The notes beneath the pieces were generated by a model. It was not told the origin of the DNA, made no database searches, and was given only the letters and a program-made list of their open reading frames with translations. Positions 20,275-23,200 of a DNA stretch of 64,000 nucleotides are shown here, piece after piece; the stretch's first letter is position 1, and each line of letters starts with the position of its first letter. Both the position numbers and the translations under genes were made by a program. The DNA is taken from contig QPGO01000079.1 in NCBI GenBank assembly GCA_008632985.1, positions 124,001-188,000 of the forward strand. The letters are read 5' to 3'. The DNA comes from Psammoneis japonica (Eukaryota).

Positions 20275-23200
20275 CACGAAAAGGAATCAGGCGCCGAATG
20301 TTGAGGTGCTCAACCACATGAGGAGCTCGACGAACCGAAAGCGTGCCACCCACGTGCACTTGAACAACAGGACAAGGGCCGTGAGCACGAGGCTCGAGTT
20401 TGGACGGGTCAGCCGACTTGGTTGGAACTTGGTCACCCACTTGACAATCGCAGGATCTTCTCTTGGCATTGGCTCTTCACAAATTGTCATTGATCAGCAT
20501 CTGGCGATGGCCTTGGATCGTCAATGAGTCTGCCAGCACAGGGATGTCTAGAATCATGTCACGTCCGAACACCACAGCACCTGGTGAAGTCTGCAAAGAA
20601 CGGGAAACAGCACAGCGAGTTGTGTGCATTGCAGTTGCCAGAGCATCGTCCACAAGGCCAGCTGCATCTTGAAGATTTTGAGGTGGATTAGAAGCAATGA
20701 GCGTGCGCAATGCATTGCCGACGGTCTGGTGCATTCGCTCGCAAACAGCGTTGGCTTGAGGGTTGTACGAAGCAGTCGGCACATCATCAATTCTGGCTTG
20801 TTGCAACAGCATCTGAAAGTCGCACCCAGTGAACTCGCCGCCGTTGTTGTGGATGCATTGATTTGGTCTGGGACAGCGTGCAAGCCAGCAGTTTTCGAAT
20901 TGGTTGGCAACATGTCGGGCAGTTTTATTTTCAATTCTCACCAGTTCAACAAGATCAGAAACAGGATCAACACAGGTCAACACCCAAAACTCAATCTCTC
21001 CATTCGGCACTTTGATTTTCCACGGGCCAATGAGGTCAACCCCCACTTCCGACCAGGGAGTCAATGGAGCTTCTCGCTCGGGCAACTCTCCATGGCCAGG
21101 ACCCAATGTTTTGTTGCGTTGACAATCAGCACAAGAGCATTCATCACACATGCAACGCAACCCAGGATGACAACAATGAGCCTGGATCGTTTCACGCATG
21201 CGCTGGCTTCTGGCATGGCCAAGGACGAGATGATGCCACTGCAAGATGTCGGGCATGAGCGCAGTCGGCAAACAGATTTTCCACTGTCCTGGAGGATCAT
21301 TCGGTCGCATGTGACAACACACAAGCGGTCGATTGTTCACACATTCCACAAGGAAACGATTGGGGTGAGCAACGCACATCTGGTTCAACTGTTGGTCCTC
21401 AAACTGGCACTCCTGAATGCGTTGTGACATCATCGGATTCTGCATCTCTTGCATCGCAGGGCAATTCAAGAAAGAATCGAACAGTTCCGGCTCATCCACA
21501 AAGAAAGAGAAGAAGTGTGAGTGGCCTTCATTTTCAATGTTGTGACAACACTTGAATCGGCATGCGCCGAGCTCCAAGTCCTCATCACGGAAATCCTCAA
21601 CTTCAGATGGTTCCTCACTCGGCACCAACTTCGAATCGAGCGGAGCAAAATCAACAACAGCTCCTTTCCCCGGAGCCAAGCTCTTCCCTTCAGAGGGAGG
21701 ATCCATGCAAGGCAAACGAGAAAAACAATCAGCCAAGACATTCAATCGGCCTTCAATGCAATGAAATTGAGGGGCAAAGTCTTCCAGAAAGAGTCGCCAA
21801 CAAAGTGCGCGTTGTGAATTCAAGGTGCGAAAGGCAAGGTTCTTGTGGTCAGTGAACACATGCAAGTCGCCGCCAAGGAGCATCGATCGGTGTTCTCGGA
21901 AGCACATGACAATGGCCAACAGTTCTTTTTCGATCGTTGAACAGTTTTGTTGTGCCGCACTGAGCTTTCGAGACCAGCACGCAACAGGCTTTCCATCCTG
22001 TGCAATCACTGCGCCCATCTGGCAATCACTGACATCGGTGCAGATGTGGAAGGGTTTGTTGTGATTCGGATGTGCCATTGATGTCTCAGCCGCTGGGACT
22101 GCTTTCATCTCATTGAACGCCGCCTGACATTCTGTTGTCCATGTCCATGAGCCTTTGCCTGTAAGATCTGTCAAGGGTTTCAATGGGTGAGAACGCCGAG
22201 GCCACACATTGCGACAATGCGTTGCAGCGCCAAGGAACGAACAAAGCTGCTTGATGTTTTCCGGAGGTTGCACTCGCAGGACAGCCTCCACCTTTTTCTT
22301 CCACGGATGAATTCCAGCTGGAGTTAGCCAATGCCCAAGGAAATCCGTTTCCTGCACACACCATTCGCATTTCAAGGGATTTGCTTTGAACCCAGCTTCT
22401 TCCAAGCGTTGTGAGAGTTCATCAAGACGGTCAAGGTGAATGTCAAAGTCGTCATCAAATTGAGCGAGATCATCAATGTGCGCGTCAACATCCAAGTCGT
22501 GCACAGTTTTCTCAATCAAATGTTGCGCAACATCTGGAGCCGGCTTCAGACCCATTGCTGAACGGCAGTGTTGGTGCTTTCCAAAGGGTGTCACGATTGT
22601 CGTCAAGTCCTTGGAATCGTCATCCAATTTGAACGCATGGTGCATCATTGAGAGGTCCAATTTGGTCAAAAAACTTGCACCCGGCTCTCTTCTGCAGTGC
22701 ATCTTGAATGATCAGTGAAGGACAAACCTTGTGCTTGAGGGCTTTGTTGAGTTCCCGAAAATCGCTGAGCCACCGCACTCGACCATCCTTCTTCGGCCAA
22801 ACAAAAGCACCAGCAGCCCATTCCGTTGTTCCGGCTTCTTCAAGAATGCCAAGAGCCACTGAATGATCCAGTTCTCGTTTGAAAGTCTCGAGATCATTGT
22901 GCGGCACTGCACACGCTCAAGAATGGCAAGGAACAGCGTTGGGATCAACATCAAGGTGAACTTTTTTGCCAGCATGCTTGCCGAGAGTGCCATCAAAAAG
23001 AGCAGTGTGTTTTTCCAATGCGAGGCGCAATTTTTCTTGTTGTTTGGTAGTGAGATGCTTCTGAGCCGATGCCACTTCAGAAGGGGACGTCTCCTCATGC
23101 TTTGCATTGAGGATGCAGCTGTCCCATGCATCACCCCATCGTTAGCTGGCTCATCAGTCAAGTCGTCAAGCCACTGCTGGATGCTGATCCGATGGTTTCT

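Follow-up and report, generated by a model that had tools for sequence, protein, structure and literature searches.

Footprint of likely TpA hypermutation in transposon and repeat blocks of the diatom Psammoneis japonica

The DNA described here is a 64,000-nucleotide stretch from the diatom Psammoneis japonica (NCBI GenBank assembly GCA_008632985.1, contig QPGO01000079.1, positions 124,001 to 188,000 of the forward strand), referred to below as the window, with all positions counted from its first letter. It carries a Ty3/Gypsy retrotransposon whose pol open reading frame (ORF) has almost entirely lost its tyrosine codons. This tyrosine loss is one symptom of a DNA-level conversion of TA, and in part of CG, dinucleotides to TG and CA over large blocks of the window, from which the host genes are spared. 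The best explanation is likely to be a locally targeted, DNA-level TpA hypermutation of transposon and repeat blocks, of the kind described in the alga Bigelowiella natans, accompanied by CpG decay. The hypermutation process itself is more secure than its chemistry, for which adenine deamination is no better than about an even bet.

Results

Tyrosine loss in two ORFs

A sequence-only reading of the window had drawn attention to the scarcity of tyrosine in two ORFs, which it counted as one residue in the first and none in the second; both counts hold.

20477-22702, minus strand: pol ORF, 741 amino acids (C-terminal part of the reverse transcriptase, RNase H, integrase), with the Pfam domains RVT_1, RT_RNaseH, RT_RNaseH_2, rve and Integrase_H2C2
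38412-39920, minus strand: 502-amino-acid ORF of a family without a Pfam model, with no tyrosine and with cysteine at 8 of 8 conserved tyrosine columns

Tyrosine makes up 2.6-4.9% of 119 of the 120 pol matches, the exception being P0057 with 1.5%, and 2.8-4.3% of 13 of the 15 matches of the 502-amino-acid ORF. At a tyrosine content of 3.5%, the chance probability of finding at most one tyrosine in 741 residues is 1e-10, and that of finding none in 502 is 2e-8. The loss reaches the catalytic motifs, as had been claimed. The YxDD motif of the reverse transcriptase has histidine (AHIDD) encoded by CAC at 22478-22480, in a column that is tyrosine in 85% of 60 relatives, and the NYS motif of RNase H has cysteine (QNCST) encoded by TGT at 21941-21943, in a column that is tyrosine in 100% of them. 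The altered motifs GKHQHCR, VACWSRKL and ARCPRP in pol, and AKQCRC in the 502-amino-acid ORF, are likewise present; their counterparts in relatives read ...QYCR, VAYWSRKL, SRYPRP and AKQYRC. We also looked for active homologues that carry histidine or cysteine at the same positions, and found tyrosine there in the relatives.

Conserved tyrosine columns of pol were defined as those with tyrosine in at least 70% of the 60 aligned relatives, which gave 17 columns. At these, pol has histidine in 8, cysteine in 7, alanine in 1, arginine in 1 and tyrosine in none. Other residues conserved among the same relatives are retained (Trp 11/11, His 10/10, Gln 13/13, Pro 29/30). In the alignment with the nearest relative, P0001 (63% identity), the 36 tyrosines of P0001 stand opposite 16 cysteines, 13 histidines, 1 tyrosine and 6 other residues of pol, the cysteines being encoded by TGT or TGC and the histidines by CAT or CAC, and no other substitution in the entire alignment is as frequent as these two changes from tyrosine. 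The cysteines of the 502-amino-acid ORF include the change of DGCAKQYRC to DGCAKQCRC. Taken against the relatives, the tyrosine columns and their codons support both the direction proposed by the sequence-only reading, from TA to TG or CA on both strands, and an origin by mutation and not by selection. Among the database relatives, the tyrosine-poor P0133 and P0135 are Tyr>Phe variants or unaligned and are without hypermutation, and P0057 looks partly affected, with 7 tyrosines, 3 cysteines and 1 histidine at 11 aligned conserved tyrosine columns.

TA-poor blocks across the window

The observed/expected ratio (O/E) of TA for the whole window is 0.28, but the depletion is strongly block-wise: per 500 bp, TA O/E is 0.00-0.19 in the blocks, except for a few windows straddling their edges, and mostly 0.4-1.2 outside. 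A two-state segmentation of the window, with the TA-poor fraction expressed as TA/(TA+TG+CA) sites, yielded six TA-poor blocks that sum to 41.6 of 64 kb.

2-1048: TA-poor block, TA at 3 of 225 sites
9033-9416: TA-poor block, TA at 3 of 91 sites
9607-12730: TA-poor block, TA at 2 of 611 sites
16082-17616: TA-poor island between host genes, TA at 4 of 301 sites
20108-52871: main TA-poor block, 32.8 kb, TA at 143 of 7,047 TA+TG+CA sites
60787-63550: TA-poor and CpG-poor block, TA at 4 of 671 sites

TA accounts for about 0.02 of the TA, TG and CA sites in the blocks and for 0.24 elsewhere, and the block edges are sharp, with depletion ending within about 100-200 bp. Relative to the TA-normal DNA of the window, the blocks have a TA density of 3.9 instead of 45.9 per kb, a CG density of 24.9 instead of 53.1 per kb, and a TG+CA density of 210.9 instead of 145.1 per kb. 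TA and CG together therefore lose 70 per kb, and TG+CA gains 66 per kb. The dinucleotides AA, TT, AT and GC are hardly altered, and the GC content is 49.6% in the blocks and 47.4% outside. Because AT, AA and TT are unchanged, GC-biased gene conversion and a general AT>GC bias were ruled out.

TA depletion covers coding and non-coding DNA in all frames. The pol interval contains 6 TA where its composition would predict 138, and the 502-amino-acid ORF 5 where 103 are expected. Every gene that could be recognised as belonging to the host (UCH peptidase, TatD, Gaa1) is located in TA-normal DNA. The best named matches of the TatD ORF, which mark the window as diatom DNA, are from diatoms (Seminavis, Coscinodiscus, Leptocylindrus, Mayamaea, Eucampia, Corethron, Epithemia, Cylindrotheca), with identities to the listed matches that are mostly 53-69% and 71% in one shorter alignment. 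The earlier proposal that transposable elements were inactivated here by directional TA>TG/CA change is thus supported as to the process, but understated as to its scale, which is 41.6 kb in six blocks and not two ORFs.

It had further been pointed out that the tyrosine loss creates no TAA or TAG stops. A TA>TG/CA change can make no stop codon and deletes TAA and TAG, and the trinucleotide counts agree, as TAA+TAG falls from 21.6 per kb outside to 2.9 per kb in the blocks. Owing to this loss of stops, long overlapping ORFs run through all six frames of the blocks, and since such ORFs are partly a by-product, their length is no evidence of genes. A Pfam scan of 96 ORFs of at least 130 amino acids and 95 ORFs of 75-129 amino acids found in the blocks only Gypsy domains and one ORF with PRiA4_ORF3 and zf-MYND matches; no viral hallmark gene was present among the scanned ORFs of the window (at least 75 amino acids).

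Composition of pol relative to its metagenomic relatives

The ancestral state was taken from 77 related elements in metagenomes. Per 742 codons, pol has 0 TTA against 13.4 in these relatives, 2 CTA against 10.6, 0 GTA against 9.2 and 0 ATA against 9.9; tyrosine codons (TAT+TAC) number 1 against 29, and codon-junction T/A 3 against 50.5. The products are enriched in the same comparison, with 33 TTG against 14, 22 GTG against 7.6 and 40 cysteine codons against 15.7. Synonymous and non-synonymous sites have therefore been erased alike, which argues against selection for TA avoidance and against a TA-free foreign origin. An explanation of this type would hold that the DNA had a TA-avoiding composition, for instance as an escape from a TA-cutting nuclease or from TA-targeting insertions. 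However, residues that are invariant in the catalytic motifs (the YxDD tyrosine and that of RNase H) have been destroyed, all codon positions and non-coding DNA are affected, the changes postdate insertion and duplication (see below), and none of the 77 relatives, whose TA O/E spans 0.42-1.08, falls below 0.4. We consider selection or foreign origin to be very improbable.

Changes that arose in place

Pol resides in a full Ty3/Gypsy insertion with two long terminal repeats (LTRs), a 5-bp target-site duplication and the domain order protease-reverse transcriptase-RNase H-integrase.

19978-19982: left copy of the target-site duplication CGTAA, read from the sequence
19983-20156: left LTR, 174 bp
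20276-23630, minus strand: protease-reverse transcriptase-RNase H-integrase homology region (tblastn of P0001; Asp_protease_2)
23702-24799, minus strand: ORF in the gag position, without a Pfam match
25002-25185: right LTR, 184 bp including a 10-bp duplication
25186-25190: right copy of the target-site duplication

The two LTRs differ by 11 substitutions, all of which set TA or CG against TG or CA, or CA against TG: 3 TA/CA, 1 TA/TG, 3 CG/CA, 1 CG/TG and 3 CA/TG doublets. No substitution of any other class is present among the 11, and the sole further difference is one 10-bp indel, a tandem duplication (GCGAGTGCTG unit) at 25094-25103 in the right LTR only. As LTRs are identical at insertion and now show 11 differences of these classes, the changes arose in place after insertion. 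A CA/TG doublet consists of two neighbouring transitions and marks one ancestral palindromic dinucleotide that was resolved separately in the two copies. The edge of the main block at 20108 falls inside the left LTR, and the outer part of this LTR, which adjoins a host ORF, retains several TA.

The same signature separates the copies of a tandem repeat in the main block.

28302-35453: tandem repeat with a 1.79-kb unit, 4 head-to-tail copies, 96.5-98.2% identity

The copies are distinguished by 62 substitution events, of which 50 are of the TA/CG-versus-TG/CA classes, and by 4 indels. A single site may read TA, TG or CA depending on the copy, and other sites read CG, TG or CA. An inverted repeat near 45.6 kb adds 17 CA/TG doublets.

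Independent support from sequencing reads

A sequencing or assembly artefact, in which modified bases of silent DNA were miscalled and TA was read as TG or CA, might in principle give a block-wise, strand-random TG/CA outcome if the consensus were built from strand-specific miscalls. The public read run X1 contains 52% of the 31-mers sampled from a 10-kb stretch and has a single-copy depth of about 55. Its single-copy contigs (depth 47-60) reproduce the TA-poor DNA at 97-99% identity while differing from the window in host DNA. Differences number 23 in 1,197 bp of TA-poor DNA and 4 in 1,702 bp of TA-normal DNA (0.24%), an odds ratio of 8.3 (p = 4e-6). As X1 is distinct from the window in host DNA and nevertheless shows the TA-poor sequence, it is an independent consensus, which speaks against an assembly artefact. 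Moreover, if an artefact were responsible, some 42 TA per kb should be restored, and TA is restored in only 4 of the 40 differences that are listed out of 601. Of all the explanations weighed here, we give this one the least credence.

CpG decay as a second process

The young Gypsy element has a TA O/E of about 0.05 and still keeps a CpG O/E of 0.7-0.95; the CpG O/E of the rest of the main block up to 41.4 kb is 0.35-0.92 (mostly 0.4-0.8). Three regions, at 41.4-52 kb, 10-12.5 kb and 61-63.5 kb, have a CpG O/E of 0.0-0.28, mostly below 0.2. As TA is near zero in all blocks whatever their CpG O/E, TA loss is much faster than CpG decay and independent of its extent. CpG loss in the blocks shows no TCG preference.

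The events within the tandem repeat comprise 37 at CpG, 6 at TA and 7 doublets. CpG events thus dominate in this repeat, whose 1.79-kb unit was duplicated after most TA had gone. Long ORFs run through the units of this repeat (e.g., 33608-35503, 632 amino acids) and have no Pfam match, and X1 depth suggests further copies of the unit elsewhere. In the sub-block 41400-52100, CpG is nearly extinct too and TG/CA O/E rises up to about 2, with no Pfam match among its ORFs of at least 75 amino acids. This sub-block is probably the oldest stratum of the TA-poor island.

Sequence context and strand

The few surviving TA are mostly in YTAR contexts, with TTAA at 31% of its normal frequency, CTAA/TTAG at 19% and CTAG at 13%. 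RTAY sites are gone: ATAT occurs 0 times against 142 in normal DNA and ATAC/GTAT 0 times against 122, and GTAC is at 4%. The flows between context classes fit RTAR>RCAR, which is YTAY>YTGY on the opposite strand. A test derived from this pattern agrees with it, as a purine precedes 10 of 13 Tyr>His changes and a pyrimidine 19 of 24 Tyr>Cys changes (Fisher p = 0.0015). The changed A thus lies preferentially in 5'-T-A-Y-3', or, in terms of the opposite strand, the changed T in 5'-R-T-A-3'; the preference is relative, given that YTAR sites are also down to 13-31%.

The same footprint could be produced by thymine chemistry. TET/JBP-type oxidation or another modification of T in 5'-purine-T-A-3' of silent chromatin would yield a base (for instance 5-formyl- or 5-hydroxymethyl-uracil) that mispairs with G or is misrepaired, resulting in T>C. 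Mispairing with G is a property of 5-formyluracil, and TpA is a preferred site of T modification in some protists; as the events are strand-symmetric, the same change is described either way. Nevertheless, the sole experimental precedent was read by its authors as adenine deamination, itself a hypothesis, and the CpG>TpG loss that runs in parallel is a deamination as well. We regard a thymine route as unlikely.

In most blocks TG equals CA on the plus strand, the Gypsy element being the exception. On the sense strand of pol, relative to the 77 relatives, TA has fallen from 55.2 to 2.7 per kb and TG has risen from 68.8 to 114.6 per kb, with CA going from 79.9 to 81.3 per kb and CG unchanged; nearly the entire TA loss thus shows up as TG on the sense strand. 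The sense TG/CA ratio reaches 1.39 for pol and 1.58 for gag, as against about 1.0 for host genes and the remaining ORFs. Of the four TA events that postdate insertion in the LTRs, three follow this sense bias and one does not. Such an excess of TA>TG on the sense strand of gag and pol, and not of other ORFs, is what RNA editing would predict: adenosines in UA of the retrotransposon RNA would be deaminated by an ADAR- or ADAT-like enzyme and fixed by reverse transcription, so that the copies were born mutated. However, the 11 LTR-LTR events are of exactly the TA/CG classes, Tyr>His changes, which correspond to antisense events, occupy 13 of the 36 tyrosine positions, and TA is just as scarce, and TG and CA roughly balanced, in tandem repeats, the integrase/DDE-like ORF, unannotatable DNA and single-copy DNA. 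RNA editing is at most a contributor, for the Gypsy element alone; as the general explanation it is more doubtful still than a thymine route.

Inactivation of the Gypsy element

Relatives of the element number 338 at E<=1e-10 and comprise diatom proteins, the named relatives of pol being from Nitzschia and Epithemia. The pol ORF is a fragment of a polyprotein of roughly 1,100-1,200 amino acids, and the homology region is interrupted at several points.

20477-20479, minus strand: TGA ending the pol ORF, at an arginine of P0001, with homology extending 67 codons further, to 20276
near 22660-22690, minus strand: frame change in pol
22917-22919, minus strand: TGA
23142-23168, minus strand: scrambled stretch interrupted by four stops, of which three are TGA and one is TAA

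The element has thus been inactivated several times over. The earlier idea of a missense route that leaves reading frames open is right in that TA>TG/CA itself makes no stop, but pol carries a frame change, a scrambled stretch and TGA stops. The TGA at 20477-20479, aligned to arginine, is as expected of CGA>TGA through the accompanying CpG decay.

Most other copies in X1 have one base fewer at 22668, and part of them also have two bases fewer near 23134. The k-mer depth of the Gypsy element in this run, 1,400-2,800 against about 55 for single-copy DNA, indicates a family of some tens of copies (roughly 40 others), and about 90% of the differences between these copies are transitions.

The 502-amino-acid ORF and other block contents

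The 502-amino-acid ORF has 15 real relatives at 30-41% identity, one of them labelled as coming from the diatom Attheya. It had been called a transposase, a label that is plausible from a moderate fold match but not established, as no Pfam transposase family supports it. The ORF has no Pfam family at E<=0.001 and no sequence match in the PDB, and the modelled structure of P0122, a full-length relative (mean predicted local distance difference test score, pLDDT, 73), gave 0 Foldseek matches at E<=0.001. In VIA-align, residues ~280-524 of P0122 superpose on the RNase H-like cores of retroviral integrase, Mos1, Metnase and IstA with Z scores of 9.2-7.8, little above the background of 7-8 given for the tool; for integrase, Mos1 and IstA, 132-173 residues are aligned at a root mean square deviation of 3.2-4.1. 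Atlas leads for the family are DUF7869 and Cc8L18.2-like clusters at 0.93-0.94. The C-terminal residues 649-771 of P0122 resemble BAH (chromatin-reader) domains (Z 6-6.5); if real, this part would be a chromatin-targeting module on an integrase-like protein.

Two ORFs without a Pfam match flank the 502-amino-acid ORF and may belong to the same mobile element.

35864-37717, plus strand: ORF of 618 amino acids, with KEKREKAKAA-type repeats at its N-terminus
39927-41069, minus strand: ORF of 381 amino acids

Elsewhere in the window, the block 9607-12730, in which TA and CpG are both virtually absent, contains units of about 463 bp repeated in tandem at 88% identity, and its strand skew over 10-12 kb is extreme (AT -0.62, GC -0.29; TG 396 against CA 212). 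The island 16082-17616 overlaps an ORF at 16825-17745 (plus strand) with a PRiA4_ORF3-like part that, at E = 6e-6, falls narrowly below the cut-off of Pfam; the same ORF holds a zf-MYND finger just outside the TA-poor part, and the X1 depth of the island corresponds to 1-2 copies. The TA-poor, unannotated stretch 26672-28005 is present in very high copy number, with a summed X1 k-mer depth of 7,000-13,000 compared with about 55 for single-copy DNA.

Discussion

According to the mechanism that we favor, the palindromic TpA is converted to TpG or CpA by an A:T>G:C transition on either strand, nearly to completion. Tyrosine codons (TAY) thereby become TGY (Cys) or CAY (His), and the codons TTA, GTA, CTA and ATA, as well as codon-junction T/A, are erased too. 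A slower second process in the same blocks changes CpG to TpG or CpA and supplies occasional TGA stops. The agent of the TpA changes may be an enzyme that acts on silent or foreign chromatin, the simplest candidate, by analogy with B. natans, being a polynucleotide adenine deaminase that turns A into inosine, which is read as G. The CpG loss would be ordinary deamination of methylated cytosine. Diatom transposable elements are CpG-methylated.

Several points weigh against this interpretation. The ancestral composition is represented only by proxies, namely the TA-normal DNA of the window and the relatives from metagenomes. TA-poor stretches that are themselves single-copy (X1 depth 47-69) are present but flanked by high-copy elements, and targeting may depend on repeats. 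Deamination of A at TAY and an alteration of T at RTA on the opposite strand leave the same sequence. The sense-strand bias of the Gypsy pol and gag regions is not predicted by a purely symmetric DNA process; it suggests a link to transcription, through exposure of the non-template strand, or an added RNA-stage component. Finally, the only DNA-editing ADAT2 studied, that of amphioxus, prefers GAA for A and TCG for C, contexts that do not match the T-A-Y preference or the CpG loss observed here.

The closest known system is that of B. natans. In mutation-accumulation lines of this alga, 231 of 302 new mutations fell in two integrated viral regions, where, with a single exception, they were A>G or T>C, invariably on TpA (Mettrop et al., 10.64898/2026.01.13.699255). 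The same preprint puts the rate in these silent viral insertions at ~6e-7 per site per generation, finds reverse transcriptase and DDE domains over-represented in TpA-poor coding sequences, and proposes an ADAT2-like deaminase as the agent (10.64898/2026.01.13.699255); diatoms and CpG find no mention there. The TpA changes in P. japonica are inferred from fixed differences, whereas those in B. natans were observed de novo. The two cases are otherwise much alike: TpA becomes TpG on one strand and CpA on the other, the effect is sharply local, and foreign or silent DNA is affected and host DNA spared. In both, the TpA-poor, CpA+TpG-rich clusters are mostly unannotatable, with reverse transcriptase and DDE genes among those affected, and divergence in affected DNA is raised, about 8-fold here (X1 against the window) and 27-fold, as polymorphism, in B. 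natans. In contrast to that chlorarachniophyte with its giant-virus and virophage insertions, the host here is a diatom, and the affected DNA consists of an LTR retrotransposon, tandem repeats and transposon-like ORFs. Depletion is also nearer to saturation, with a TA O/E of about 0.06 against 0.45 in the region of B. natans derived from nucleocytoplasmic large DNA viruses (NCLDV). The parallel CpG decay, the T-A-pyrimidine preference and the sense-strand bias of the retrotransposon go beyond the B. natans account as available. A literature search found the signature reported only for B. natans, and for no diatom or other organism.

The process also resembles repeat-induced point mutation (RIP) of ascomycetes, as both are dinucleotide-specific transition hypermutations of repeats and transposable elements that leave sharp compositional domains and inactivated element genes. 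RIP changes C to T mainly at CpA, so that new TpA and stop codons appear and GC drops. Here, by contrast, TpA is destroyed, no stop arises from the TpA change, and GC is slightly up. The CpG decay of methylated transposons is another parallel, with CpG>TpG/CpA changes in the same blocks, but it leaves the TA loss wholly unexplained.

Among adenosine deaminases, ADAR changes A to G with a 5' U/T neighbour (10.64898/2026.01.13.699255). The fungal TAD, ADAT and TadA-derived editors share this change and this neighbour with ADAR, but all of these enzymes act on RNA, or on single-stranded DNA if engineered. The preference of TadA-like enzymes is T-A-C. On the 3' side, G is favored by ADAR and by the fungal system, whereas a pyrimidine is preferred here.

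Compared with what is known, the diatom host, the ordinary transposons as targets, the near-saturation, the T-A-pyrimidine preference, the parallel CpG decay and the Gypsy sense-strand bias are new. Only one earlier case of a natural, motif-specific A:T to G:C editing of duplex genomic DNA is on record, that of the 2026 preprint on one alga. The footprint in a diatom extends the process to major marine primary producers and to ordinary transposons, where TA loss outpaces CpG decay. The T-A-pyrimidine motif and the strand bias are constraints that any candidate enzyme must reproduce, and a natural adenine editor of double-stranded DNA, if that is the true agent, would be of interest to genome engineers. 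There is a practical warning as well. TA-poor blocks give spurious ORFs in six frames, tyrosine-free 'proteins' and inflated LTR divergence; therefore, gene prediction and LTR dating will be wrong there.

More tentatively, and with somewhat less than an even chance of being right, we propose that diatoms possess an enzymatic 'adenine RIP', a DNA adenine deaminase or its equivalent, that is targeted to chromatin domains and edits 5'-T-A-Y-3' in silent transposons and foreign DNA until TpA is nearly extinct. It would be independent of duplication, would favor the non-template strand of transcribed elements, and, as a chlorarachniophyte shows the same signature, may be an old defence of the lineages of stramenopiles, alveolates and rhizarians (SAR) and not the peculiarity of a single species. 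If this is true, protein composition, with no tyrosine and an excess of cysteine and histidine, and ORF statistics would have been reshaped in large parts of the genome.

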